Source: a virus (lineage: Duplodnaviria; Caudoviricetes). Taken from it: 53,795 bases of DNA. The position numbers and the translations under genes are program-made. The notes below the pieces were generated by a model. It did no database searches, was not told the DNA's origin, and worked only from the letters and a program-made list of their open reading frames with translations. The stretch covers positions 1 through 53,795 of the IMG/VR virus record IMGVR_UViG_3300025093_000026; one strand, written 5' to 3'. Positions 17,112 through 44,818 of this stretch are shown piece after piece; the stretch's first letter is position 1, and each line of letters opens with the position of its first letter.

Positions 17112-17210
17112 ATGAAAAAATTTTTACACAGATTAGCAAATTTATTTAACGACAAACATTGTTGCTGCTGCTGTGGCTGCTGTTCTTGCGCCGACTGCGG
17201 AGACTGCTAG
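17112..17210 (+). CDS. 32-aa Cys-rich, metallothionein-like peptide MKKFLHRLANLFNDKHCCCCCGCCSCADCGDC
   Basis: Not in the ORF track. Strong TAAGGAG RBS; fills the gap between primase and the next gene (TAG abuts GTG at 17211); 10 Cys in the last 16 residues. Confidence 0.75.
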   Translation: MKKFLHRLANLFNDKHCCCCCGCCSCADCGDC

Positions 17211-17711
17211 GTGAAACTTATATTTGAAAGCTGGCGAAAGTTTTTAAAAGAAGAAGCCTCTGAAGAAAAGATTGAAGACGTTGTCGTAGACATCTTAAAA
17301 GACGAAGGCGGCGCCGCAGGATTAGATCCTATTGAGAAAGCCGTTGAGGAGTTAGATTTACCAGAAGGTTTTGATTTAAAAGACTTTCTAAAAGGTCTTA
17401 GAGGTGTTGGGCAACACGAAGATGGCGACTACATCTTGGAAGACGGTGAAGAAATTCACGTAAAAGAAGGCATTGAAATTTTCTTGGAAGCGCAAGAAGA
17501 AATGCTTGACGAAAAAAGAAAAAGATCTAAAAAAAGAACAAAGAAGAAACGTAAAGCTAAAAAGAAAAAGAAAGGTAAAAAAGATGCTTGTTATCATAAA
17601 GTAAGATCAAGATATAGCGTCTGGCCTTCTGCGTATGCATCAGGTGCTCTTGTAAAGTGTCGTAAAGTCGGCGCTAAGAATTGGGGCACAGGCGGGAAGA
17701 AAAAGAAATGA
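17211..17711 (+). CDS. putative internal head protein: leader + acidic region + Lys-rich/Cys domain (DUF5872-like WPSAYASG motif)
   Basis: MKLIFESWRKFLKEE leader, acidic middle, then MLDE-KRKRSKKRTKKKRK...ACYHKVRSRYSVWPSAYASGALVKCRK. Confidence 0.65.
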   Translation: MKLIFESWRKFLKEEASEEKIEDVVVDILKDEGGAAGLDPIEKAVEELDLPEGFDLKDFLKGLRGVGQHEDGDYILEDGEEIHVKEGIEIFLEAQEEMLDEKRKRSKKRTKKKRKAKKKKKGKKDACYHKVRSRYSVWPSAYASGALVKCRKVGAKNWGTGGKKKK

Positions 17712-18064
17712 AAATCTCTGAAGAAGAATTAAACCAAATTATCAGAGAAGAAGTTCTAAAATATTTGGAAGAAAAGAAAAAAAAGAAGAAGAAAAAGAAG
17801 AAAAGAAAATTAACCGCTAAGCCAAGCTCTGAAAAAAGCCTTCGTGATTGGTTTGGAAGAAAAGGCGCAAAAGGTAAAAAAGGCGGATGGGTTGATTGTA
17901 ACACTTGCCGCAAAGATAAAAAAACAGGCCGCAAGAAATGTAAATCTTGTGGAAGATCAACCGGAGAGAAGAGAGCAAAATATCCATCTTGTCGTCCAAC
18001 ACCGGGCGCTTGTGGTAAAAAAGGAAATTACGGCAAAAAATCAAAAGCCGGGAAAAAAGGATAA
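17708..18064 (+). CDS. putative internal head protein, leader + poly-Lys + Cys-rich basic domain
   Basis: ATGA overlap with the previous gene; MKISEEELNQIIREEVLKYLEE-K10, then SLRDWF..GGWVDCNTC..CKSC..YPSCRP. Confidence 0.65.
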   Translation: MKISEEELNQIIREEVLKYLEEKKKKKKKKKKRKLTAKPSSEKSLRDWFGRKGAKGKKGGWVDCNTCRKDKKTGRKKCKSCGRSTGEKRAKYPSCRPTPGACGKKGNYGKKSKAGKKG

Positions 18065-18069
18065 CCATT

Positions 18070-18393
18070 ATGAAAATCACAAAAGAATATCTAGAACAGA
18101 TCATCAAAGAAGAAATTGAGGCAGTTTTAAATGAAGAAGAAGGACTTAACGAGGCTTCGTGGCACTGGACGGAAAGTAAAGACTTGTGTATGAGACTCTC
18201 AGAAAATTGGGCGGTGGACTGGGATTCAGGCTTACAAAAATATCGCGCAAGAAAAGGCGGAGATCAAAAACAGTGTTGTATGTGCGGTGGAGCGCCAGCG
18301 GGGACGGAGCGTAATCCAGATGGCACACTCAAGGGCGTTGATTATTTTGACCCCAAAGATCCAGCACAAAAGAAAGCCTGCTTAGGATTTTAA
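18070..18393 (+). CDS. MKITK-leader protein with Cys-containing cargo
   Basis: MKITKEYLEQIIKEEIEAVLNEEEGLNE leader followed by an unrelated domain (CCMC). Confidence 0.65.
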   Translation: MKITKEYLEQIIKEEIEAVLNEEEGLNEASWHWTESKDLCMRLSENWAVDWDSGLQKYRARKGGDQKQCCMCGGAPAGTERNPDGTLKGVDYFDPKDPAQKKACLGF

Positions 18394-18416
18394 AAATAAT
18401 ATCTGAGGAATAAACA

Positions 18417-18815
18417 ATGAAAATCACAAAAGAATATCTACAAGAAATTATTAAAGAAGAATTAGAGGCTGCTCTTAATGAAGAAGAGTTCTACGAAGTT
18501 GATGCTAAAGATATAAACGAAGAATTCTGTCCAGTTTGCGCTCCATTAGAAGAGAAGAAAAAAAAGAAGAAAAAGAAGAAAGCCTGTAAGCCATCCAAAG
18601 GCAAAAGATTTGCTAAAAGAGTTGATGGTAGATGCATCTCACACGGTCAAGCAGGAAAAGCAAAAGATGGTGGTGATAGAATACGCCCCGGTACAGCAAA
18701 AGGTGATGCTTATTGCGCAAGATCAGCAGGCATCAAAAAATGTAAAAATCCACCGTGCGCAAATACACTTTCTAGAAAGAAGTGGAAATGCCGCGGCAAA
18801 AAATCAATGAAATGA
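18417..18815 (+). CDS. MKITK-leader protein, poly-Lys + Cys-rich basic cargo
   Basis: MKITKEYLQEIIKEELEAALNEEE...PLEE-K9, then ..GDAYCARSAGIKKC..SRKKWKC. Confidence 0.65.
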   Translation: MKITKEYLQEIIKEELEAALNEEEFYEVDAKDINEEFCPVCAPLEEKKKKKKKKKACKPSKGKRFAKRVDGRCISHGQAGKAKDGGDRIRPGTAKGDAYCARSAGIKKCKNPPCANTLSRKKWKCRGKKSMK

Positions 18816-18820
18816 ATTAC

Positions 18821-19130
18821 GGGGGTGAACTGGTATCGACTGGATATTGAAAATTTAATGTGCAAGGCTGTGTGAGTGTGGCACAGTAAAAACACTCAAC
18901 AATTTAAACGCCAACGATAACGTTAGCTTTGATTACGCCCTAGCGGCTTAATTACGGGGTTGTAGTCGCCTTGTTAACCAAGACTACGAAAAAAGTTTTT
19001 GGCTTCTTTAAAGAGCCAATAGTTAGCGAAATAAGAGAAGTTTGTCAGAGTTCATAAACTGACTAACCTTGTGAACGACATTATTTTAGAAATATTTAGG
19101 ACCCGGGTTCGACTCCCGGCATCTCCACCA
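18821..19130 (+). ncRNA. ssrA: tmRNA (310 nt)
   Basis: 5' GGGGGTG pairs with 3' CATCTCC-ACCA including the G3.U70 alanine determinant; T-arm CCGGG-TTCGACT-CCCGG; pk1 (GCTGTG/CACAGT, TGAGTGT/ACACTCA); tag ORF 18910-18951 = ANDNVSFDYALAA*. Confidence 0.95.
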
Positions 19131-19515: not shown

Positions 19516-19953
19516 ATGGCAGTAGATGCGAGAACAGGACAGCCAATATATGGCTATCAAAGTGTTGGTTTGAACCATGTCGGCTCTTATCAGGCATCTG
19601 CGCGCCCATTTCTCACATCTTCTTTAAATGTACCTGCCTCTTCTGGTACACCAACAGTAGTATCATTTGAGAGCGTTTCAAAGTTTGTTATCATAACAAA
19701 TACACTACCAGGAAGCGCAACCAATGTTCCTTTGCGATTTGGCTTTTCAGAGGCAGGTGTCAAAGGAACTGTTGATAATAACTACGGTATTCTCAATAAT
19801 GGCGAGAGCTTTGAAGCAGATTTTAAAGTAACCAGAGTATACTTATTGAGTGATTCAACTAATGAATGCTCGGCTTCAGTTATTGCTGGATTAACTGGAA
19901 TTGCTGCTAATCACTTAATGAGCAACTGGTCTGGTTCGGCGGGAGTAGGATAA
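19516..19953 (+). CDS. putative virion (head decoration-like) beta protein, paralog of 41211 ORF
   Basis: Shares MAVDAxTGQPIxGxxSVGLNHVGSYQxSxxPxxTxS and a C-terminal A(G/E)LTxIxAxx..N(W/Y)..SGS.GV with the 41211 ORF. Confidence 0.55.
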   Translation: MAVDARTGQPIYGYQSVGLNHVGSYQASARPFLTSSLNVPASSGTPTVVSFESVSKFVIITNTLPGSATNVPLRFGFSEAGVKGTVDNNYGILNNGESFEADFKVTRVYLLSDSTNECSASVIAGLTGIAANHLMSNWSGSAGVG

Positions 19954-21536: not shown

Positions 21537-21842
21537 ATGAAAATTACAAAACAACAACTAAAACAAATCATCAAAGAAGAGATTTCTAAAGTATTTGCCG
21601 AGGGAGACTACGGCAGTGTAAAGGATCGACAATCTGATAACTATTATGCAGTGCGCCTAGAGTTAATTGCTGGAATGGACATACCAAAAGAATTAGTCAC
21701 AGACGAGCTAATCATGGCAATTTTACGTGATCCTCGTTACTCAGAGGGCGATTCAATTGACGCCGAGCAAGGCACCGCTCCACGCGGCTATGGATTTACA
21801 CTCCAAGACATATATGATCTTATAGACAGCTTGAAGTCTTAA
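21537..21842 (+). CDS. MKITK-leader protein, acidic cargo
   Basis: MKITKQQLKQIIKEEISKVFAE leader. Confidence 0.65.
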   Translation: MKITKQQLKQIIKEEISKVFAEGDYGSVKDRQSDNYYAVRLELIAGMDIPKELVTDELIMAILRDPRYSEGDSIDAEQGTAPRGYGFTLQDIYDLIDSLKS

Positions 21843-22621: not shown

Positions 22622-25600
22622 ATGCGTTTTGCGCACATAGCGGATACTCATATCCGAAATTTAAAATATCATAAAGAATATAGAGAAGTTTTTAGTCAAC
22701 TGTACGAAAACCTCCGAGAACAAAAACCAGACTACATAATTCATTGCGGAGATATCGCACACACGAAAACTCAGATTAGTCCTGAGTATGTTGAGATGTG
22801 TTCTGATTTCCTCAAGAATTTAGCAGACATAGCACCAACTTACGTTATTCTTGGTAATCACGATGGGAACCTACGCAACTCAAGCCGTCAGGACGCCCTT
22901 ACACCTATCGCCAACGCATTACAACACGAAAACCTATACCTACTTCGTGATGCGGGAGAAACGCCCTTAAACGACCGTTTCTCGCTAAATGTGCTGTCTG
23001 TATTTGATGAGGACAATTGGGTTGAGCCATCTGATCCAAATCGTGTAAATATTGCTTTATATCACGGATCTATTTCAAACTGCGAAACAGATCTTGGATG
23101 GAGAATGGAGAGAGGTGAAAATGATATTAGCATCTTTAATAATTTTGACTATGGTTTTCTTGGCGATATACACAAAACCAATCAAATCTTGGACAAGAAA
23201 GGCAAGATACGTTATCCTGGCTCAACGGTCCAACAGAACCACGGAGAAACCAACGACAAAGGATACTTGCTCTGGGACATTGAAGACAAAGAAAATTACA
23301 CATGTAAGCACTTTGTTTTAAAAAATCCAAAGCCTTTTATCACAATTCCTTTGACGCCCACTGGTAGGATCTCTAAAAGAGTAGAGATACAAAGTGGCGC
23401 CCGTCTACGTCTTGTATCTGAAAATCACTTGCCCCTAGATGTAATTCGCAAGGCAATTGATGTCGCGAAGACTAGGTTTAAACCCGAGGCTATTACATAT
23501 TTAAATCGTGCGCAAGGAGATCGTGTAAATCTAGAAGACATAACTAATTCTTTAGTCAAGGAAGATTTGCGAGATATTAATGTTCAGGAGGAGTTAATTG
23601 AAGAATATTTGCAGGAGTATCAGGTTGATTCCGAGACGACTAAGAAGGTTCTTGACCTTAATAGAGCTTACAAAAAAAGAGTTGAAGAGGAGGAGGAGAT
23701 CTCACGCAACGTCAACTGGCGTTTGAAAAAGGTAGAGTGGGACAACCTTTTCAACTATGGAGAAAGCAACTCTATTAACTTTGAAAACTTAAACGGCATT
23801 GTTGGTATTTTTGGTAAGAACTTTTCTGGAAAGTCCAGCATTGTTGATTCAATTCTGTATACAATGTTCAACACAACATCAAAGAATAATCGCAAAAACC
23901 TCAACATTATCAACCAGAATAGAGATTATTGTAGAGGCTACGTTGAGATCGATGTTGGCACAAAGACGTATAGAATTGAGCGCGTTAGCACAAAGTACAT
24001 CAAGAAGCTTAAAGGTAATGTAACACAAGAAGCAAAGACTGACTTAGAGTTTAGCGTTTACGATAACGCCATTCAAGAAGAGAAAAGCCTTAATGGTACA
24101 TCCAGAAATCAAACAGACAAAAACATCAAAAAGATTTTTGGTACAATGGAAGACTTTCTTTTGACTTCAATGGCTTCTCAGTTGGGATCCCTTTCCTATA
24201 TTAGCGAAGGCTCAACCCGACGTAAGGAAATCCTTGCTAAGTTCTTGGACCTTGAAGTCTTTGAACGCAAGTTCAGGATGGCGAAAGAAGAAGCAGCGGA
24301 TACAAAAGCTCTCCTACGTCGCTGGCAGAACAGAATGTTTGATGAGGAGATTGAGGAAGCAGAAGAAGTTTATAGTGAAAACAATATTAAACTTGAGCAA
24401 AAAGAGCTACACTGTAGCAATCTCAAGCAACAACTTAAAACAAAGCAAGATGAACTACAAGCCATCTCTTTAAAACTCAACGACATTCCTGAAGATGTAG
24501 TTGATATCAAGAATTTAATGTCTGATATCAGCGAGCAGAATAAATTGTTAAGAGGGTACGAAAATGAGAGGGTAAGTCTTGTAGCAGAAATCGCAGCAAA
24601 AGAAAAATACATCTTTGAAGTAGAAGAGTTCTTAGAAGAGTTTCCTGCTGACGAAGTACAAAAGCGACAAGAAGAGATTAAAGAAAGAATTGAAAGGATC
24701 AAAGATCTAGAAAATGATATTGAAAAGTTACAAGAAAAGATCAAAAGACAGAAAAAGAAAATTAAATTGCTGGACGAAGTTCCGTGCGGAGATGAGTTTC
24801 CAACTTGTAAGTTTATTGGTGACGCGCATAAATCTAAGGTTCAGCTAGGGACGACAACTGTTTCTTTGAAAGACCTTTCTTTATCCAAGGATAAAACGCA
24901 AGAAGATTTAGATGCTCTAAATCCAGAAGAAAATCAAGAGACCCTAGACAACTATGTGGTATTCCAAAATAAGTTGTCTGAGGCTAAAATTGATTTACAC
25001 GTACTGAGCGTTGAGATGGAGAGAAATAAGACCGAGGTTTTCAAAACAGAAATTTTGTTATCAGATCTTAACAAACAAAAAGATTTCTACAATGAAAACA
25101 GGGACTTGATTGAAAATTACGAACTTCTACAGGAAGAACAAAACGAACTAAACAAAGAAACAAAAACTTTAAGCAACGATCTAGAGAAGTGCCAGAAAAA
25201 TATTCTTGCGCTCTGTAAAGAAAACGGTACGTTACAAGAGCGTGTTGAAAAAGCTAAAAGGGATAAAGAAGAATTCTTGACATTAGAGAACAGTTTCTCT
25301 GCTTATGATTTGTTTATGCGCTGTATGCATTCTAACGGTATTTCTTACGATATCATTAAGAAGCGCTTGCCTCTTATCAATGCAGAGATTTCAAAAGTTA
25401 TCGCCAACATTGTTGACTTTGAAATCTTCTTTGAGAACGAAGATAAGAAACTTGATATTTTGATTAAGCATCCAGGCTATGATGCTCGTCCTATTGAGAT
25501 GGGATCTGGTGCTGAGAAAACAATTGCAGCAATGGCTATTCGTCTTGCTCTCTTAAATGTATCAACTTTGCCAAAGGGAGATATCTTTGTTTTGGATGAG

Positions 25601-25774
25601 CCAGGAACAGCTTTAGATGAAGAAAATATGGAAGGTTTTGTAAGAATCCTTGATATGATCAAAACTCAATTCAAGACTGTGCTCTTGATTTCTCATCTGG
25701 ACACATTGAAAGATACCGTGGACACTCAAATTATGATTGAGAAGAAAAATGGTTTTGCTTCAGTTAATCAATAA
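22622..25774 (+). CDS. fused SbcD/Mre11 (gp47-like) nuclease - SbcC/Rad50 (gp46-like) ATPase
   Basis: Phosphoesterase motifs ADTH, GD, GNHD, GDIH; Walker A GKNFSGKS; long coiled coil; signature GSGAEK; Walker B VLDEP; H-loop ISH. One continuous ORF. Confidence 0.92.
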   Translation: MRFAHIADTHIRNLKYHKEYREVFSQLYENLREQKPDYIIHCGDIAHTKTQISPEYVEMCSDFLKNLADIAPTYVILGNHDGNLRNSSRQDALTPIANALQHENLYLLRDAGETPLNDRFSLNVLSVFDEDNWVEPSDPNRVNIALYHGSISNCETDLGWRMERGENDISIFNNFDYGFLGDIHKTNQILDKKGKIRYPGSTVQQNHGETNDKGYLLWDIEDKENYTCKHFVLKNPKPFITIPLTPTGRISKRVEIQSGARLRLVSENHLPLDVIRKAIDVAKTRFKPEAITYLNRAQGDRVNLEDITNSLVKEDLRDINVQEELIEEYLQEYQVDSETTKKVLDLNRAYKKRVEEEEEISRNVNWRLKKVEWDNLFNYGESNSINFENLNGIVGIFGKNFSGKSSIVDSILYTMFNTTSKNNRKNLNIINQNRDYCRGYVEIDVGTKTYRIERVSTKYIKKLKGNVTQEAKTDLEFSVYDNAIQEEKSLNGTSRNQTDKNIKKIFGTMEDFLLTSMASQLGSLSYISEGSTRRKEILAKFLDLEVFERKFRMAKEEAADTKALLRRWQNRMFDEEIEEAEEVYSENNIKLEQKELHCSNLKQQLKTKQDELQAISLKLNDIPEDVVDIKNLMSDISEQNKLLRGYENERVSLVAEIAAKEKYIFEVEEFLEEFPADEVQKRQEEIKERIERIKDLENDIEKLQEKIKRQKKKIKLLDEVPCGDEFPTCKFIGDAHKSKVQLGTTTVSLKDLSLSKDKTQEDLDALNPEENQETLDNYVVFQNKLSEAKIDLHVLSVEMERNKTEVFKTEILLSDLNKQKDFYNENRDLIENYELLQEEQNELNKETKTLSNDLEKCQKNILALCKENGTLQERVEKAKRDKEEFLTLENSFSAYDLFMRCMHSNGISYDIIKKRLPLINAEISKVIANIVDFEIFFENEDKKLDILIKHPGYDARPIEMGSGAEKTIAAMAIRLALLNVSTLPKGDIFVLDEPGTALDEENMEGFVRILDMIKTQFKTVLLISHLDTLKDTVDTQIMIEKKNGFASVNQ

Positions 25775-34058: not shown

Positions 34059-35633
34059 ATGTCGTTCCAACTCTCCAGGGACCAGATTTTAAAAGAAATT
34101 GTAAAGTCTGGTAAAGATCCAATTTATTTTATTAACAACTATGCAAGGATTTCTCATCCACAGCATGGTCTGATTCCCTTTAACACATATCCATTTCAGA
34201 CGGAACTACTTCAAGATTTTAACGATCACCGTTTCAATGTTATTTTAAAAGCTCGCCAGCTTGGTATCTCAACAATTACAGCAGCTTATGTTGCCTGGAT
34301 GATGCTTTTCCACAAGGAAAAGAATGTTCTTGTTATTGCCACACAGTTCAAGACTGCATCAAACTTGGTCAAAAAAGTAAAGGCAATACATAAGAATTTA
34401 CCACAATGGCTCAAGATTGCCGAGATCTCAATTGACAACAGAACTTCATTTGAGTTAACTAATGGCTCGCAGATCAAAGCAACTTCAACTTCTGCTGACG
34501 CTGGTCGTTCTGAAGCTCTTTCTCTGCTTGTGATTGACGAGGCTGCCCACATTGATGGTCTAGGAGAACTATGGACAGGTTTGTATCCAACACTATCAAC
34601 TGGTGGGCGCTGTATTGCTCTCTCAACTCCAAATGGCGTTGGTAACTGGTTTCACCAAACTTGCATTGATGCCGAGCAAGAAAACAATGACTTTTTCCTT
34701 ACAACTCTTAAATGGGATGTACATCCGGACAGAGACGAAGAATGGTTTCAGAAAGAAACCAAGAATATGTCCAGAAGACAAATCGCACAGGAGCTTGAAT
34801 GTAACTTCAATATGTCTGGCGAAACTGTCTTCCACGCAGATGATATGAAGATTATTGAAGAGGGCCTAAAAGAGCCAAAATATAAAACTGGTTTTGATCG
34901 CAATTTTTGGATTTGGGAAGAATACCAACCAGGATCAACATATCTTTTATCGGCTGACGTAGCCCGTGGTGACGGAAAAGACTATTCTACGTTTCATATT
35001 TTTAAGATTGAAACAATGGAGATTGTTGCAGAATACCAAGGAAAAGCTACACCAGATATATTTGCCAATATGCTAAATGAAACTGGAAAAGAATATGGTA
35101 ACTGTATGGTTGCTGTAGAGAATAATACAGTCGGATGGACTGTCCTAGATAAATTGCTTGATTTTGGATATCCAAATATCTATTACGCATATAAATCAAA
35201 TCATGAATATGTTGATCCTGTCTTGGGAGAACAAAAAAGCAATGCTGTTATGGGCTTCTCGATGACTTCTAAGACACGTCCACTAGTTATTGCTAAATTA
35301 GAAGAATTCATTAGAAATAAACTAGTTACGATATATTCAAGAAGAATTTTTAATGAAATGAAAACATTTGTTTGGCAGAGCGGCCGGCCCCAAGCTATGC
35401 GAGGCTATAACGATGATCTCGTTATGGCATTTGCGATCGGGTGCTGGGTTAAAGATGCTGCTTTTGAGGTAAATCAGAGAGACATAGAATATAGAAAAGC
35501 TTTCTTAAATTGTATGAAAAAAAATGATACGATTATTAATACTTCAATTCCGGGACAGCCTGGATATAAACACATTAGAAAAACAGATAAAAAAAGAGCG
35601 CATCTAAATAATATTTGGTTACTCAAGGGATAA
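34059..35633 (+). CDS. terL: terminase large subunit (T4 gp17-like)
   Basis: YPFQ Q-motif, KARQLGIST Walker A region, LLVIDEAAH Walker B, STPNG coupling motif, DVARGDGKDYS and NDDLVMA nuclease motifs. Confidence 0.93.
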   Translation: MSFQLSRDQILKEIVKSGKDPIYFINNYARISHPQHGLIPFNTYPFQTELLQDFNDHRFNVILKARQLGISTITAAYVAWMMLFHKEKNVLVIATQFKTASNLVKKVKAIHKNLPQWLKIAEISIDNRTSFELTNGSQIKATSTSADAGRSEALSLLVIDEAAHIDGLGELWTGLYPTLSTGGRCIALSTPNGVGNWFHQTCIDAEQENNDFFLTTLKWDVHPDRDEEWFQKETKNMSRRQIAQELECNFNMSGETVFHADDMKIIEEGLKEPKYKTGFDRNFWIWEEYQPGSTYLLSADVARGDGKDYSTFHIFKIETMEIVAEYQGKATPDIFANMLNETGKEYGNCMVAVENNTVGWTVLDKLLDFGYPNIYYAYKSNHEYVDPVLGEQKSNAVMGFSMTSKTRPLVIAKLEEFIRNKLVTIYSRRIFNEMKTFVWQSGRPQAMRGYNDDLVMAFAIGCWVKDAAFEVNQRDIEYRKAFLNCMKKNDTIINTSIPGQPGYKHIRKTDKKRAHLNNIWLLKG

Positions 35634-35641
35634 ATAATTAA

Positions 35642-37600
35642 ATGGCTAATAGAAATTCAAATCCAAGAAATCCACAACACGAATTATTTCGTAAATTAAC
35701 TAAATTATTATCTGGACCAATTGGAACCTCAAGGCAGCAACAGCCTCGTTCATTGCGTCGTATGCAGCTGGATAATTATTCCACAAAGTTTAAGTCAGCA
35801 AGCGGACAAGAGTTTAAAAAGTCGGCATATGGCCAGAAAGGTAATTATACCGCAAATTATATGGCTAATCAAAATCGTGCCGATCGTTATCACGATTTTG
35901 ATCAAATGGAATATACTCCCGAGATTGCATCTGCTTTAGATATTTACGCGGATGAAATTACAACTTCAACTGAAATTTCTCCTTTAATGAAAATTATTAC
36001 TCACGATGAAGAAATTAAAATTGAACTTGAGCACCTTTTCCATAAAGTTTTAAATATTGAATATAATATTTTTGGCTGGGCAAGATCCTTGTGTAAATAT
36101 GGAGATTTCTTTCTTTATTTAGATATTGATGAGGACCAAGGTGTACAATACGCGATAGGTCTCCCTTCAAATGAAGTGGAAAGATTGGAAGGAGAAGATG
36201 AAAATAATCCAAATTACATCCAGTACCAATGGAATTCTGCCGGCCTAACATTAGAAAATTGGCAGGTTGCTCATTTTCGTGTATTGGGGAATGATAAGTA
36301 TACACCATATGGAACATCTGTCCTTGAACCAGCTCGTCGTATTTGGCGTCAATTAACTTTAATGGAAGATGCCATGATGGCATATAGAATTGTGCGTTCT
36401 CCTGAAAGAAGAGTTTTCTATGTTGATGTAGGAAATATGCCTCCACAAGATATTGAACAATATGTTCAGAGAGTTATGACACAGATGAAAAGAAATCAAG
36501 TTGTTGATGCTGATAGTGGCCGCGTTGACTTACGTTATAACCCGATGTCAGTGGAAGAAGACTACTTCATTCCAGTAAGGGGAGGTCAGTCAACAAAAGT
36601 TGAAACTTTATCTGGTGGCCAATTTACAGGCGATATTGATGACATTAAATATCTTCGTGACAAACTATTCTCGGCATTGAAAATACCACAATCATATTTG
36701 ACTATGGGCGAGGGCGGAGAAGAAGATAAGACAACTTTAGCTCAGAAAGATATTCGTTTTGCAAGAACTGTGCAAAGATTGCAAAGATCTCTCACATCTG
36801 AACTTGAAAAAATAGCAGTTGTCCATTTATTTTCTAGAGGGTATAGAGGCAAAGATTTGACTTCCTTTACTCTTTCATTAAATAATCCATCAAAACTAGC
36901 ACTTATGCAAGAGTTAGAAACTTGGAGAACCAAGTTCGAAATCGCCGGTAGCGCAACCGAAGGTTACTTCAGCAAGAGATGGGTTGCTAAAAATATCTTT
37001 AATCTATCTGAGGACCAGATTTTAAGAAATGATAGAGAGCTTTTCTTCGATAAGAAACACGCCGCACTATTAGAAAAAGCTGCTGAAGAAATTACTGCTG
37101 CTGGTGAGCCAACTGATGAATTAGGTGGCGATTTGGGAGGTGGCCTCGGGGGCGACCTAGGTGGTGACTTAGGTGGTGACTTGGGCGCCGACCTAGGTGG
37201 CGATCTGGACACAGAGCCAGAGGGTGAAGAAACTCCGGGCGCAGAAACAGAAGCTCCAGAGCCAGAAGCTCCAGCTGGCGAAGAATCATCTCTCTTGGCC
37301 GCTCCCGGTAAAAGAGATATTAGAGAATATGAAAAATCGACATATAGGCCGGTTAAGCATGATAAGAGAACCAAGACAGTACCATATAGAAAAAATATAG
37401 GTTCAATGACCAAGCCAGAAGGTGGCACAAAGTCTTCTCAAAGAAGTAAATTTCCTGGATCTGAGATCTCGCGTCTAGGATATGGCGTTTCTGAAAGTAT
37501 TGAACCTAATTATAATAATGAAGAACAAAAACTTCTTGAAGCAAATATAGAAATTAAAAATCTAATTACTCTTTTGGAAACAAAATATGAGCAAACTTAA
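35642..37600 (+). CDS. portal protein (T4 gp20-like) with low-complexity C-terminal extension
   Basis: LMEDAMMAYRIVRSPERRVFYVDVGNMP, EEDYFIPVRGG, DIKYLRDKLFSALKIP motifs. Confidence 0.93.
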   Translation: MANRNSNPRNPQHELFRKLTKLLSGPIGTSRQQQPRSLRRMQLDNYSTKFKSASGQEFKKSAYGQKGNYTANYMANQNRADRYHDFDQMEYTPEIASALDIYADEITTSTEISPLMKIITHDEEIKIELEHLFHKVLNIEYNIFGWARSLCKYGDFFLYLDIDEDQGVQYAIGLPSNEVERLEGEDENNPNYIQYQWNSAGLTLENWQVAHFRVLGNDKYTPYGTSVLEPARRIWRQLTLMEDAMMAYRIVRSPERRVFYVDVGNMPPQDIEQYVQRVMTQMKRNQVVDADSGRVDLRYNPMSVEEDYFIPVRGGQSTKVETLSGGQFTGDIDDIKYLRDKLFSALKIPQSYLTMGEGGEEDKTTLAQKDIRFARTVQRLQRSLTSELEKIAVVHLFSRGYRGKDLTSFTLSLNNPSKLALMQELETWRTKFEIAGSATEGYFSKRWVAKNIFNLSEDQILRNDRELFFDKKHAALLEKAAEEITAAGEPTDELGGDLGGGLGGDLGGDLGGDLGADLGGDLDTEPEGEETPGAETEAPEPEAPAGEESSLLAAPGKRDIREYEKSTYRPVKHDKRTKTVPYRKNIGSMTKPEGGTKSSQRSKFPGSEISRLGYGVSESIEPNYNNEEQKLLEANIEIKNLITLLETKYEQT

Positions 37601-39343: not shown

Positions 39344-39466
39344 ATGGCTGAGAAAAAAAGCGATAAGAAGAATACAGGTCATGGACCTGGAAAAGTTTTG
39401 AAACCGGGCAACGTTTGTCCTTCAAGTTGGTGGAAAGGTACTGGATCTAAGAAAACTAAGAAATAA
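39344..39466 (+). CDS. 40-aa basic peptide MAEKKSDKKNTGHGPGKVLKPGNVCPSSWWKGTGSKKTKK
   Basis: Not in the ORF track; AAGGAG RBS; TAATG coupling to the protease start. Confidence 0.65.
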   Translation: MAEKKSDKKNTGHGPGKVLKPGNVCPSSWWKGTGSKKTKK

Positions 39467-40110
39467 TGTCAAAAAAACTATTACAAGAATATTTTGAACT
39501 TTGTCCTGATGGGCAATGCGCTTTTGATATCTTAACGGAATCAGAAAGAAAGCGTGTTGCCAATGATGGAGCAGTCTATCTTGTAGGAGTTTGTCAGCGC
39601 GCCGGTACAAAAAATGGAAATGGCAGAATCTATAAGAAAGAAACTCTTCAAAGAGAAGTAGAGAATTACCAAAAGGCAATCAAAGAAAGAAGATCGCTTG
39701 GAGAGCTAGACCATCCAGACGATAGCGTGATCAACCTTAAAAATGCCGCCCACCTAGTTTCAAAGATGTGGTGGGATGGTGATAATGTAATGGGAAAGAT
39801 TGAAGTTTTGGATACTCCTTCTGGCAGAATCCTAAAAGATTTAATTAAAGCCGGCGTTAAGCTTGGTATTTCTTCCCGAGGTCTTGGAACCGTAAAAGAA
39901 TCCCAAGGCTACGTAATGGTTGAAGATGATTTTCAGCTGATTTGCTTTGATATTGTATCAGAGCCTTCAACACCCGGCGCTTATTTAGCACCAAAAGCTA
40001 GTGCATCTATTTCAACTCCAAAAATGGATGCTGGAATAAGTGCTTATTTAAATGAAAATAAAGAAAAAACAAACTTGAATAATCTTATTCAAGATATTTT
40101 AAAGGATTAA
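39466..40110 (+). CDS. prohead maturation protease (T4 gp21-like)
   Basis: NGNGRIY, GELDHP (catalytic His), LGISSRGLG (catalytic Ser), FDIVSEPSTPGA. Confidence 0.93.
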   Translation: MSKKLLQEYFELCPDGQCAFDILTESERKRVANDGAVYLVGVCQRAGTKNGNGRIYKKETLQREVENYQKAIKERRSLGELDHPDDSVINLKNAAHLVSKMWWDGDNVMGKIEVLDTPSGRILKDLIKAGVKLGISSRGLGTVKESQGYVMVEDDFQLICFDIVSEPSTPGAYLAPKASASISTPKMDAGISAYLNENKEKTNLNNLIQDILKD

Positions 40111-40114
40111 TATT

Positions 40115-40522
40115 ATGAAAATTACAAAAGAACAATTGAATAAGATCATTAAAGAAGAAGTCCAGGCTGTTCTTAGCGAGGGTGGTGCTATGGGACATTA
40201 CGAGGGATTAAGTGATGCCGCGAAAGTAGAGTTTCGTGAGTTTATAGAGGCTTGGTTTAATCAAGCGGCCGCTCGATATCGCAATGATCCAACTTCTCCT
40301 TACAAAGCAGAACAGCTTGCCCGGGATCTGATGATGGGCGCCAAGGGTAAAAAACAAGATCCTTACTCAGCGAGCGTAGATTTTAATTTTATGGTAAAAA
40401 ACTTGGATCCAGCAGACCAGGACGCTGCAAGGAACCTTTTAAGTAGTATGGCTAAAGGAGTTGAAAAAAATCCGGCTTTAGCAACCTCGTCAAAAGAATT
40501 ATTATCTAACTCCGGACTATAA
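40115..40522 (+). CDS. MKITK-leader protein
   Basis: MKITKEQLNKIIKEEVQAVLSE leader; immediately downstream of the prohead protease. Confidence 0.65.
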   Translation: MKITKEQLNKIIKEEVQAVLSEGGAMGHYEGLSDAAKVEFREFIEAWFNQAAARYRNDPTSPYKAEQLARDLMMGAKGKKQDPYSASVDFNFMVKNLDPADQDAARNLLSSMAKGVEKNPALATSSKELLSNSGL

Positions 40523-41210: not shown

Positions 41211-41753
41211 ATGGCAGTAGATGCAAAAACAGGACAACCAATATTTGGTCGCTACAGTGTTGGCCTAAATCACGTTGGTTCATATCAATCTTCTGGTACT
41301 CCTTGGATTACTGGGTCTACAATTACCGCCGACGCAGCGTCTGGCTCGGTTCATACTTTTGAGCTTCCAATGATTGCAAAAAGTATTACTGTCCAGACGG
41401 TACCCAATGATACATATACAACCCCAGCTGCAGCCGGCCCAAACCCAGCCGAAGGTGTTGCCTTTTACTTTGGCGAATCATTGGCAACAGATGGCACTCG
41501 TGTTGAAGGAAAAAATTCATTTCCATCAACTTTTGTCGGCGCCCCAGCTCAATTAGTCAATAGACATGCTTTGACAGTTAGATTCCCGAGTGGCTCACAG
41601 GAAATAGGAGTAAGAACTGATAAAATTAATATCGCTATTTTCGCCGGCGCCTCCGCGGTTTCTGCATCATATCAAATATATGCGGAATTAACAAATATTC
41701 CCGCAGCCAGAATGCCCTATAACTATATCTCTGGTTCTGGAGTAAATACTTAA
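41211..41753 (+). CDS. putative virion beta protein, paralog of 19516 ORF
   Basis: Shared ~36-aa N-terminus and C-terminal motif. Confidence 0.55.
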   Translation: MAVDAKTGQPIFGRYSVGLNHVGSYQSSGTPWITGSTITADAASGSVHTFELPMIAKSITVQTVPNDTYTTPAAAGPNPAEGVAFYFGESLATDGTRVEGKNSFPSTFVGAPAQLVNRHALTVRFPSGSQEIGVRTDKINIAIFAGASAVSASYQIYAELTNIPAARMPYNYISGSGVNT

Positions 41754-41826: not shown

Positions 41827-43035
41827 ATGTCAAATTTGCTTACTGACGCACTAATTGATGCCGAAGCGCTGCGGGAAACCGCTTTGAAAAACGCAGAGGC
41901 TATTTTACTTGAAAAATTTTCTGATCAAATTAAGGATGCTGTTGAAACAATACTAACTGAGGCGCCTGAAGACGAAGAGCTGCCTATGGATGATGAAGCT
42001 GCAGCAGAAGAAATGGATGTCGAGGAAGAAGTTCCTGAGATGCCTTTGGCAAGCGCTGAAGGTGTAGAAATGTGTCCTTGCCCAGATAACGAAAAAGAAG
42101 AAATTATCGATTTCGACCAGCTTGAAGCCGAGCTTGATAAGATGGAAGCTTCCGAAGAAGATATGGAAACTTCCGAAGAAGCAGCAGAGGATATGCCTCT
42201 GGAAGAAGAATTGCTCGATATAAATGAAGAAGAATTAGAAGAGATGGCATATGCCCATTCGGAAGAAGTTGATCTTGAAGAAGAGCTACTAGAAGAGCTA
42301 GCTGACATGTTGAACGAAGAAGATGATCCGATGGGGAAAGATGCAGAAGCTCAAGAGGCCGCAGAAGAGGCTGCCGAGAAAGGTGGTGAAAGTTCTGATC
42401 TTGAGGCCACATCACAGCCGGGCGTACAGAAAGAAAACTTAAGCACTGACGATGATCAATTGTTAGAAGATTTAATTGAAGCCTTGAAGGTAGATATTGA
42501 CCCACTAAAGACAGAAAAATCTGGTTGGATGAATACACCACAAGGCACATTCCAATTGGCAGAAGAAGAGCTTCTAGCGATGCTAGAAGATTCAGAAGTT
42601 CGCGAACAACGCGATGAAATGAAGAAAGCTCTTAAAAGGCTAGAAGAAACAACAGATAAGTTAAAGAAAGAAAAGAAAGAATTACTTTCAATAACGTCTA
42701 GAATGAAGAAACAAATTAAAGAAAGCAATTTAACAAATTCCAAATTGCTTTACACAAACAAGGTATTGATGAGCGACTCCCTAAATGAGCGGCAGAAATT
42801 TAAAATTGCCGAAGCTCTATCAAATGCCGAAACTGTTGAAGAAGCAAAGACAATTTATGAGACTCTTCAAAGCGCAACGGGCAGCACAGTTGAAAAAAAG
42901 AAGCCAGAATCGTTGAGCGAAGCGGTTAACAAAACTACTTCAACATTAATTCTTTCTCATCGCAAACGCGACAAGGAAGAAAAAACTCAAAATAGTTCAT
43001 CAGAAAGATGGAAGATTTTGGCTGGCTTAAAATAA
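41827..43035 (+). CDS. prohead core / scaffolding protein (T4 gp22-like)
   Basis: Extremely acidic with many LxE sites, C-terminal coiled coil and RWKILAGL end; directly before the MCP. Confidence 0.8.
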   Translation: MSNLLTDALIDAEALRETALKNAEAILLEKFSDQIKDAVETILTEAPEDEELPMDDEAAAEEMDVEEEVPEMPLASAEGVEMCPCPDNEKEEIIDFDQLEAELDKMEASEEDMETSEEAAEDMPLEEELLDINEEELEEMAYAHSEEVDLEEELLEELADMLNEEDDPMGKDAEAQEAAEEAAEKGGESSDLEATSQPGVQKENLSTDDDQLLEDLIEALKVDIDPLKTEKSGWMNTPQGTFQLAEEELLAMLEDSEVREQRDEMKKALKRLEETTDKLKKEKKELLSITSRMKKQIKESNLTNSKLLYTNKVLMSDSLNERQKFKIAEALSNAETVEEAKTIYETLQSATGSTVEKKKPESLSEAVNKTTSTLILSHRKRDKEEKTQNSSSERWKILAGLK

Positions 43036-43060: not shown

Positions 43061-44818
43061 ATGTCAGTTTTAGAGAAATTAACAGAAGGAATCGTAGATC
43101 GTTCCCTCGCAAAGGAAGGTGCTGCCCTAGTTGAAAAGTGGGAGCGTACCGGTCTTCTTGAGGGTCTCGATACCGATCACACAAAGAATGGTATGGCTCG
43201 CTTGCTTGAGAATCAGGCAGCCCAGCTTCTTAAAGAGGCATCCTCAATGGCAGGTGGCGACGTTCAGGGTTTCGCATCTGTTGCATTCCCCCTCGTCCGC
43301 AGAGTCTTCGGCGGCCTAATTGCAAACGATCTTGTTTCAGTTCAGCCAATGAGCCTCCCCTCCGGTCTCATTTTCTTTATGGATTTTGAGTACAATGATA
43401 CCCGCTTTGGCCTCACAGAAGGTGAGTCAGTTTACGGTGGTGGCGTTGTTGGTTCAGAGCTAACTGGTGGTGTTACAGACCTCACTGAGAATGGTGGTGG
43501 TTTCTACAACCTCCAGAATGGCTACTCATCAGCTACTGGTTCTGAAACACAGTCACTTACCGCTTCCGCAACACAGGCTGCTTGGGCACCTGTTACTGCT
43601 TCAATTGCTGGTACTGCCGCTAACTGGACAGCAGCTCAGTTGTCTTCAGTTTCATACGACGTTGATCTTCTTAACAGTGATCTTCACGTCATTCAGGTTA
43701 CAGCTTCTGTACCTGGCGGAACTAGTGATGCTAATGGCCCCCTTAACCGTCTAGACTTGATTGACATTCACCCTGCAATCACAGGCGCCGACTTTGCAGG
43801 AGCTACATTGGTTCGTCGACTTACTCGCATTGTAAGTGTTGGTGGAGTTGAGAGATTGGTTATGACCCTTCAGACATCTGCATCCGACTCATTCAACGAA
43901 AATGCAAGTGGTTCTTTCGCTCTAGAGTACCCTGTTGCTGATCTATACAGCGATGCAGACGCTCTCGGCGCAGTTGTCGGTGATGTGTTCCCTCTAGAAG
44001 GCGCTAGCGATGTAGGTGGCGATTTTGATGGAGATAACAGAGGTATTATCCCGGAGATTAACATCAAGGTTGACTCAATCGCAGTCACAGCACAGACCAA
44101 GAAGCTCAAGGCAAAGTGGACCCCCGAACTCGGTCAGGACCTCAATGCTTACCACAACCTTGACGCAGAGGTTGAGCTTACTCAGATCCTCTCAGAGCAG
44201 ATCGCTCTTGAGATTGACCGTGAGATCGTCAACGACCTCATCCAGGGCGCTACAGCCGGTACTTACTACTGGTCACGCTCCCCAGGTCTCTTCGTTAACC
44301 GTACAACCGGCGCAGAGGTTGGTGCTGACACATCAGCTCCTGACTTCACCGGTACAGTTAGCGAGTGGTACGAGACTCTAGTTGAGACAATCAATGACGT
44401 TTCCGCTCAGATCCACAGAAAGACTCTCCGTGGTGGTGCTAACTTCCTAGTTACTTCACCTGAGATGGCTAACATCCTTGAGTTCACTTCTGGTTTCCGC
44501 GCTAGCATCACCGCTGATGCAGATCGTGGTACAGTTGGTGCAGTCAACGTTGGCTCAATTTCTAAGAAGTTTGATGTCTGGGTTGATCCTTACTTCCCCC
44601 GTAACCTAGTTCTTGTTGGTCGTAAGGGCGGCAGCTTCCTTGAGAGTGGCTTTGTATACGCTCCGTATGTGCCTCTCCAGGTTACCCCGACAATCTTCGG
44701 TACTGAGGATTTCGTCCCACGTAAGGGCGTAATGACTCGTTACGCGAAGAAGATGGTCCGTCCAGATATGTACGGTCTTGTCATTTGTCGCGGACTTCTT
44801 GGTGAGTCTGGCGCTTAA
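43061..44818 (+). CDS. major capsid protein (T4 gp23-like)
   Basis: LLENQ, VQPMSLPSGLIF, KLKAKWTPELGQDLNAYHNLDAEVEL, YAPYVPL, GVMTRYA motifs; probable maturation cut after LLKE59. Confidence 0.95.
   Translation: MSVLEKLTEGIVDRSLAKEGAALVEKWERTGLLEGLDTDHTKNGMARLLENQAAQLLKEASSMAGGDVQGFASVAFPLVRRVFGGLIANDLVSVQPMSLPSGLIFFMDFEYNDTRFGLTEGESVYGGGVVGSELTGGVTDLTENGGGFYNLQNGYSSATGSETQSLTASATQAAWAPVTASIAGTAANWTAAQLSSVSYDVDLLNSDLHVIQVTASVPGGTSDANGPLNRLDLIDIHPAITGADFAGATLVRRLTRIVSVGGVERLVMTLQTSASDSFNENASGSFALEYPVADLYSDADALGAVVGDVFPLEGASDVGGDFDGDNRGIIPEINIKVDSIAVTAQTKKLKAKWTPELGQDLNAYHNLDAEVELTQILSEQIALEIDREIVNDLIQGATAGTYYWSRSPGLFVNRTTGAEVGADTSAPDFTGTVSEWYETLVETINDVSAQIHRKTLRGGANFLVTSPEMANILEFTSGFRASITADADRGTVGAVNVGSISKKFDVWVDPYFPRNLVLVGRKGGSFLESGFVYAPYVPLQVTPTIFGTEDFVPRKGVMTRYAKKMVRPDMYGLVICRGLLGESGA

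Follow-up and report, generated by a model that had tools for sequence, protein, structure and literature searches.

The 53,795-base (53.8-kb) record IMGVR_UViG_3300025093_000026, analysed here over its whole length (the window), comes from an uncultured marine virus, a distant T4-like myovirus, and carries a cluster of four small genes, g1 to g4, between positions 17211 and 18815. In three of these genes (g1, g2 and g4), an acidic N-terminal part ends in an [LI]xE motif (Leu or Ile, any residue, Glu), and a strongly basic, lysine-rich part bearing cysteines begins at the very next residue. The encoded proteins are most likely internal head proteins of the T4 style, because a shared acidic leader ends in a protease motif exactly at a poly-Lys, Cys-bearing domain; T4-type internal head proteins with unusually basic cargo are thus what we consider the tagged proteins of this phage probably to be.

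In the mechanism proposed here, the leader, an amphipathic acidic helix, would work like the T4 capsid targeting sequence (CTS), docking the precursor on the acidic scaffolding core of the prohead. A gp21-type protease encoded in the same genome (39466-40110) would then cut after Glu in [LI]xE motifs, the last of which lies directly before the poly-Lys run. The acidic pieces would be cleared together with scaffold fragments, and the polycationic modules (poly-Lys plus a cargo module termed A, B or C') would be retained in the head with the incoming DNA, where their lysines would neutralise phosphate charge; the modules would probably exit with the DNA at infection. We infer the steps of docking, cutting, virion retention and DNA binding, as well as any role after injection, and, from charge alone, a condensation or protection of DNA by the mature parts. 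Precedents for single steps are described in two papers: lysines of T4 internal proteins contact DNA phosphates (PMC3012670), and long propeptides with several cut sites occur in phage SPN3US (PMC5694885).

How DNA charge is neutralised in tailed-phage heads, and which cargo travels with the DNA, has been studied well in T4 and a few giant phages only. Should the modules be packaged, polycationic, possibly metal-binding peptides, diced by a protease from tagged precursors, are carried by some of the most abundant marine myoviruses; this would matter for the density of DNA packing, for ejection and for the stability of virions in seawater. Such a system would, in addition, supply natural, portable capsid-address tags, as well as a comparative test of tag evolution across lineages. 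The idea is directly testable, since the cultured Flavobacterium phage immuto (vB_FspM_immuto) has the same layout: its gp187 runs from a leader (...ILSE|KK) through module A and a linker (...LLQE|) to module B.

The charge boundary, its conservation and its leaders

The first gene, g1 (17211-17711, + strand), has a GTG start and encodes 166 residues, arranged as leader (MKLIFESWRKFLKEE), acidic module (VLKDEGGAAGLDPI...VGQHEDGDYI), linker helix, K/R run, module A and a KKKK tail. The linker helix ends in L99-D100-E101 (17505-17513), giving the junction ...EMLDE101|KRKRSKKRTKKKRKAKKKKKGKK; the K/R run covers residues 102-124 (17514-17582), and module A (CYHKVRSRYSVWPSAYASGALVKCRK) lies at about 17583-17687. 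The ATG of g2 (17708-18064, +; 118 residues) overlaps the g1 stop codon (ATGA), and this codon at 17708, not the TTG at 17681, is the true start. The g2 leader, MKISEEELNQIIREEVLKYLEE (17708-17773), runs straight into the junction ...KYLEE22|K10-RK, in which K10-RK occupies 17774-17809 (K10 itself, 17774-17803), and module B follows (17810-18061). In g4 (18417-18815, +; 132 residues), the leader MKITKEYLQEIIKEELEAALNEEE (18417-18482) is separated from the junction by an acidic, CPVC-bearing linker (18483-18554) ending in L44-E45-E46; the junction reads ...CAPLEE46|K9, with K9 at 18555-18581, and precedes a folded basic module, C' (18582-18812). The remaining gene, g3 (18070-18393, +; 107 residues), combines the leader MKITKEYLEQIIKEEIEAVLNEEE with a cargo that contains five Cys and no poly-Lys and is acidic overall (isoelectric point, pI, 4.9); with seven homologues, it is a real but rare gene.

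In g1, g2 and g4, cumulative charge reaches its minimum exactly at the last [LI]xE, directly before the K/R run. Net charge (and pI) changes from -21 (4.19) in the N-terminal part to +29 (11.32) in the C-terminal part of g1, from -4 (4.49) to +35 (10.65) in g2, and from -11 (4.07) to +29 (10.71) in g4. Each pro-region contains 3-5 [LI]xE sites, the last one abutting the poly-Lys. An earlier reading of the window (the sequence-only reading) had described a charge flip at an LxE site in three clustered genes, each followed by a basic domain with Cys residues. Reading of the DNA and computation of charge place all three junctions at the coordinates just given, the C-terminal parts hold 2, 6 and 6 of the 2, 6 and 8 Cys in g1, g2 and g4, and the pro and mature segments differ in pI as that description implies (4.1-4.5 for the N-terminal parts, 10.7-11.3 for the C-terminal parts).

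The tracts that encode the basic runs are A-rich, with a longest A run of 7-8, and might in principle be non-coding DNA that merely reads as lysine. We consider the chance of this practically nil, as in-frame AAG codons are interspersed among the AAA codons, and thousands of homologues with invariant Cys, Trp and Gly columns refute it.

The boundary is itself conserved, beyond what chance would give. Homologues of g2 number 2179 at E ≤ 0.001 among 2201 candidates, with 50-97% identity; of the 142 internal K/R runs in the best 120 of these, 122 come immediately after an [LI]xE, the remainder following another hydrophobic-x-E (3) or lying within basic regions (17). Among representatives at 50% identity, g4 has 261 homologues, most of which are longer proteins with the module at their C-terminus, and in the best 150 of them [LI]xE stands before 65 of 120 K/R runs (the others: 45 non-acidic, 5 Asp, 3 other Glu, 2 other hydrophobic-x-E). 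A junction logo of 138 distinct upstream 10-mers, pooled from the listed g2 and g4 homologues, shows Leu (76%) or Ile (15%) at P3, a sum of 91% against a background of 16% Leu plus Ile at P10-P4; P2 is occupied by Glu (41%), Asp (36%) and, in 4%, Leu or Ile, and P1 by Glu (97%) or Asp (3%). These junction sequences are kin, and the counts are hence not independent events; in a diverse subset, whose members differ at ≥5 of the 10 positions, 58 of 69 fit the junction pattern.

The alignments support the view that the boundary between [LI]xE and poly-Lys acts as a protease site under selection. A Glu-specific cutter predicts that Asp and Glu are interchangeable at P2 while P1 is almost always Glu; helix propensity does not predict this. 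The presumed cutter is a prohead maturation protease of the T4 gp21 family (39466-40110, +; phrog_207, E 3.1e-60), which is 34% identical to T4 gp21 (E 2e-28). The major capsid protein, of T4 gp23 type (43061-44818, +), carries a site of the same kind, L57-K58-E59|A60, just ahead of a block that aligns to T4 gp23 residues 76-125; the equivalent site in T4 gp23 is L63-T64-E65|A66. Cleavage of the basic proteins by a prohead protease at the charge boundary, as the sequence-only reading envisaged, is favoured, by sequence comparison, through conservation of the site and the gp21-type protease.

A scan of all six frames of the window located the leader MKI[ST]..L..II[KR]EE (also MKITK..L..IIKEE) on five genes whose cargos are otherwise unrelated. 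In addition to g2, g3 and g4, these are a gene for a 101-residue protein (21537-21842, +; leader MKITKQQLKQIIKEEISKVFAE) with yet another cargo, and one for a 135-residue protein (40115-40522, +; leader MKITKEQLNKIIKEEVQAVLSE). The latter gene is the next one downstream of the protease gene, within the head-assembly block, and its product has no tblastn match in cultured phages. The leader of g1 (MKLIFESWRKFLKEE) represents a second type, of pattern MKLIFESWRKFL, found on this gene alone; in g1 homologues, the acidic module (VLKDEGGAAGLDPI...VGQHEDGDYI) occurs behind either leader and ahead of other cargo. AlphaFold2 models predict the leader as a confident helix, with predicted local distance difference test (pLDDT) scores of 93-95 in g4 and 77-86 in g2.

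In design, the leader appears to be that of the T4 CTS. T4 IPII and IPIII (NC_000866) begin with MKTYQEFIAE, containing I8-x-E10, and IPI has I17-x-E19; g4 begins with MKITKEYLQE, containing L8-x-E10. Compared by eye over these ten residues, the two starts agree in M1, K2, E6, an aromatic residue at 7, an aliphatic residue at 8, and E10. The sections of PMC9026906 that treat the T4 CTS describe it as 10-19 residues long in IPI-III and removed by gp21 after Glu, with residues 4 and 7 serving targeting and residues 8 and 10 serving processing, which is blocked by Asp at position 10.

Sharing of the leaders also bears on what the acidic parts do. The sequence-only reading took the acidic pro-region to neutralise the polycation until cleavage, a function that does not fit the numbers for g2, whose leader carries -4 against +35 and leaves the precursor at pI 10.3. 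Nor does it fit the distribution of the acidic parts, as the common leader is also present on non-basic proteins (g3, 21537-21842 and 40115-40522), and the conserved module in the 101-residue acidic part of g1 recurs with other cargo, neither of which suits a bespoke neutraliser. A better candidate for the counter-ion in the prohead, and possibly the docking partner for leaders and poly-Lys, is a scaffold-like protein of 402 residues (41827-43035, +; pI 4.18), which has no PHROG or other family match.

With a net charge of -69 and 19 [LI]xE sites, the scaffold-like protein could also serve a scheme in which the basic proteins are prohead core or assembly factors, their poly-Lys binding the acidic scaffold to build or size the core and the pieces being expelled after cleavage; the leader-bearing protein encoded beside the protease would suit such a scheme as well. 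We regard it as very unlikely, since building folded, conserved basic modules only to discard them would be wasteful, and leaderless modules occur in phages without T4-like head genes, in which no gp21-type protease was found.

Cargo modules and their tags across virus lineages

Module A has the consensus CYHKV.SRY.VWPSAYASGALVKCRK. Residues 106-164 of g1 match phrog_727 with E 2.1e-22, whereas the same family reaches only E 0.0095 against g2 and does not match g4; because the match is strong in g1, weak in g2 and absent in g4, phrog_727 membership is ascribed to module A alone. The Pfam family DUF5872 gave no match to module A of g1 at E up to 10, and the immuto relative P0003 scored 23.0 bits (E 1.3e-4) against it, under the 27.5-bit cut-off.

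Module B has the consensus LRDWFGRKGAKGKKGGWVDCNTCRK...CK.CGR..GEKR.KYP.CRPTP.AC, with a CxxC-10-CxxC arrangement plus C..C. In 52 sequences, C64, C67, C78, C81 and C95 are invariant, and C102 is present in at least 90%; some relatives have only four Cys. The pattern is possibly zinc-ribbon-like; the match of g2 to Pfam DZR_2 is weak (E 1.1).

Module C', with the consensus YGQAGKAK.GGDRIRPGT.KGDAYCARS...LSRKKWKC, is predicted to form a confident compact domain: the AlphaFold2 model of g4 has a mean pLDDT of 87.4, and 10-residue block means are at least 85 from residue 51 to the end. Comparison of this model with BFVD returned uncharacterised viral relatives only, and a wide VIA search gave none at Z ≥ 5, the listed rows mostly covering residues 1-54 and barely probing the basic domain. 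The Pfam family DUF6321, which concerns module C', did not match g4 and was matched by 2 of 57 aligned g4 relatives (best E 0.0056). An hhalign comparison of the g4 family with a DUF6321-bearing cyanophage protein gave a probability of 5% over 33 columns; the Atlas feature score linking g4 to the DUF6321 cluster (0.90) serves as a lead only.

Many homologues of these proteins are polyproteins that repeat an acidic helix and an [LI]xE|K-run ahead of every module. The syntenic relative L043 encodes RuvC, a primase, an A+B fusion, a leader with different cargo, a leader followed by K11 and module C', and a transfer-messenger RNA (tmRNA); in the fusion, an internal linker, ...KVLDE|KKRKKRRKL, stands between the g1-type and g2-type modules. 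Separately, several metagenome proteins (P0221, P0215 and others) show module C' joined at the K-run to EPSP synthase, DctQ or thioredoxin domains; these appear to be chimeras created by assembly or gene calling at A-rich tracts, not real fusions.

The different cargo that L043 carries in the slot between g2 and g4, and the confident compact fold predicted for module C', would also suit injected anti-defence or takeover effectors, packaged and cut in the same way, whose folded modules would hit host targets and whose poly-Lys would be just a DNA tether. T4 offers a precedent, in that its internal proteins are described in PMC3012670 as diverse defence proteins with only the CTS in common; T4 IPI* blocks a restriction enzyme. 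The modules found here are unlike fast-evolving counter-defence cargo, being highly conserved and very abundant (2179 g2 matches); they span unrelated virus lineages, and no target was suggested by any search. Effectors of this kind therefore appear unlikely.

Modules A and C' also occur as free-standing basic proteins of 47-92 residues, with no acidic leader, in Vibrio phage 468E53-1, Roseobacter phage CRP-7 and Vibrio phage 1.036.O. Among five cultured-phage records, the gp21-type protease was found in two, those of immuto and S-SCSM1, which are the T4-like ones. In cyanomyoviruses, a phrog_727 protein of about 520 residues contains, in series, module A, a B-like stretch, a fourth small Cys module and a DUF6321 C-terminus, and its GenBank labels are 'virion protein' (S-SCSM1, gp29) and 'structural protein' (S-E7), which support a place in the virion only indirectly. 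The paper on S-SCSM1 describes a virion proteome of 45 proteins obtained by mass spectrometry, of which 13 have unknown function.

From IMG/VR, 80 module B loci were kept; 30 were chosen for a protease search, and 28 were searched. The protease was present in 10 of the 28, and in 7 of the 10 module B records that are at least 85% complete. One of the three exceptions, 85% complete, is also without a capsid gene, and its head block is therefore probably missing. The other two (G002 and G010, the records with loci L021 and L073) are complete records of about 95 kb without a T4-type protease or capsid protein, in which 8 and 11 genes, all on one strand, start with M-x-W-x-x-[IVM]-L-K. This start occurred 0 times in a backwards control and 0 times in two T4-like records. 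In G002, the module B protein begins with MTWEEVLK, and its basic stretch follows immediately, no [LI]xE intervening; its counterpart in the other ~95-kb record has W-E-D-I-L-H-K next to the basic run. Among proteins found in the searches, those with M-x-W-x-x-[IVM]-L-K starts carry module B or module C'.

The type of tag thus tracks virus lineage, and the same cargo behind lineage-specific N-terminal tags is the strongest comparative argument for a destination in the capsid. A wider reading, which we hold to be possible but doubtful, would see in A, B and C' an ocean-wide, lineage-crossing set of protamine-like capsid cargo mini-proteins with swappable, lineage-specific tags, forming a virion 'chromatin' for DNA packing, stability or ejection. 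Within it, cleavable [LI]xE leaders would be used in T4-type phages and the M-x-W-x-x-I-L-K start in the ~95-kb non-T4 lineage; the modules would be untagged in some short-genome phages, and T4-type polyproteins would be diced by the head protease into DNA-condensing peptides.

Several points weigh against placing these proteins in the head. Their cleavage, packaging and DNA binding are inferred from sequence. Leu at P3 may be just the last hydrophobic position of an amphipathic helix, and the likeness between the leader and the T4 CTS, which spans ten residues only and is no proof of homology, could be due to chance. The genes g1-g4 sit after RuvC and primase, outside the head block, and the T4 late-promoter motif TATAAATA was not found before them; the motif has 5 matches, against 4.6 expected by chance, and each is on the minus strand. 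In the phages lacking the protease, free-standing modules have early, replication or lysis-like genes as neighbours, and such modules could be ordinary intracellular DNA-binding proteins. The cyanophage relative has no MKITK-type leader, and in the Sullivan 2010 sequence file every one of the 15 T4-GC_119 entries bears the heading 'Hypothetical protein', which lends no proteomic support. On the structural side, the AlphaFold2 model of g2 is poor (pLDDT 57.6), and a Foldseek search with the whole g4 model gave no PDB match at E ≤ 0.001.

The neighbouring primase and RuvC genes, the free-standing modules near replication genes and the missing late-promoter motif speak together for intracellular nucleic-acid-binding proteins that are never packaged, in which the acidic helix oligomerises or self-masks and no cleavage takes place. 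Such a role seems quite unlikely to us. The common leader is also found on the head-block protein and on unrelated acidic cargo; a preference for Glu over Asp that holds at P1 and is absent from P2 would be difficult to account for unless the cutter were Glu-specific; the type of tag differs between virus lineages; and the cyanophage relative is labelled 'virion protein'. A place for g1, g2 and g4 among T4-style internal head proteins remains the reading that we prefer.

Genome setting and neighbouring features

A T4-type head and tail gene set, including sheath, tube and hub, lies on the + strand of the window. Besides the protease, scaffold-like and major capsid genes, the head set comprises the large terminase (34059-35633, +) and portal (35642-37600, +). 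The closest major capsid proteins among cultured phages are only ~47% identical (Flavobacterium phage immuto). The g1-g4 cluster is located downstream of a RuvC-like resolvase and primase and directly upstream of a tmRNA gene. Scans for sigma-70 promoters and terminators gave matches at chance level.

A conserved micro-open reading frame (micro-ORF; 17112-17210, +), encoding 30-33 residues of the form MKK.LH.L..LF...HCCCCCGCC.C... with 10 Cys in the window copy, ends right before the g1 GTG and contains the GGAG ribosome site of g1. Further copies are located in L043 (3631), L051 (3727) and L082 (174), the last directly before a tmRNA. The product of the micro-ORF could be a peptide that binds metal, or a leader peptide that senses Cys for the Cys-rich genes that follow.

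The tmRNA gene (18821-19130, +; Rfam RF00023, 123 bits, E 5e-49) is full length, begins 6 bases past the g4 stop and specifies the tag peptide ANDNVSFDYALAA. A general link between tmRNA and poly-Lys genes, based on the idea of ribosome stalling on A-rich lysine runs, was considered and dropped, because only 2 of the 80 related loci have a tmRNA in the vicinity of module B. The tmRNA body (18800-19073) is represented by near-identical short contigs in four metatranscriptome runs from four studies, possibly through DNA carry-over. For g1-g4, these four runs hold no near-identical contig, which is uninformative on expression; a few metatranscriptome pieces of 31-41 bases, with 2-3 differences, match 17574-17904 (run X6).

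Two paralogous genes (19516-19953 and 41211-41753, both +) encode proteins of 145 and 180 residues that start with MAVDA[RK]TGQPI.G..SVGLNHVGSYQ and have no family match. One precedes the gene for a 514-residue virion structural protein (phrog_1645), and the other lies between the protease block and the scaffold-like gene. Elsewhere, a single ORF of 1050 residues (22622-25774, +) joins SbcD-like (Metallophos) and SbcC-like (AAA_23/SMC_N) parts, which are usually encoded by two genes.

Comparison with known systems

The sequence-only reading knew of no characterised tailed-phage system of this kind, a view that T4 contradicts: its internal proteins IPI-III carry a CTS that is removed by gp21 after Glu (PMC9026906). 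Like the proteins described here, T4 IPI, IPII and IPIII (and Alt) are small and basic (pI 8.9-9.5 for the T4 internal proteins) and share a short N-terminal leader that is common to unrelated proteins and ends in [LI]xE; a homologous protease is encoded in the same genome, and the cargo slot varies among relatives. In contrast to T4, the pro-regions found here are longer (22, 46 and 101 residues vs. 10-19) and contain several cut motifs, the last of which abuts a poly-Lys run, and their cargo, at pI 10.7-11.3, is more basic by a wide margin, bears Cys, is widely conserved and is built of small modules that recur as polyproteins. Literature searches returned no description of such polycationic phage proteins, which shows only that these searches found none.

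Inner-body and ejection proteins of the giant phages phiKZ, 201phi2-1 and SPN3US are likewise cleaved C-terminal to Glu by a gp21-related protease, according to the passages of PMC9026906 concerned with them, and those of PMC5694885 describe propeptides of more than 100 residues with redundant cut sites that enable clearance of fragments. The giant-phage sites have Ala or Ser at P3, whereas Leu or Ile is found here, and their cargo consists of large proteins rather than poly-Lys mini-domains; no sequence relation was seen.

Closer in sequence is the cyanomyovirus family T4-GC119/phrog_727, which has module A, a B-like stretch and a virion or structural label in common with the proteins described here, but is a single protein of ~520 residues with neither an MKITK-type leader nor poly-Lys junctions. 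Outside the tailed phages, adenovirus pre-VII and pre-mu are basic, DNA-condensing precursors that are trimmed in the capsid by the viral maturation protease. Adenovirus belongs to an unrelated lineage, its enzyme is an unrelated cysteine protease with a different motif, and no adenovirus family appeared in a Pfam scan of g1, g2 and g4 at E up to 10; the parallel is one of analogy only. Set beside the known T4 precedent, what is new here is a polycationic, modular and widely conserved cargo, a cut motif placed at the charge boundary, the occurrence of polyprotein forms, the presence of untagged modules in phages without the protease, and the exchange of tags across virus lineages.

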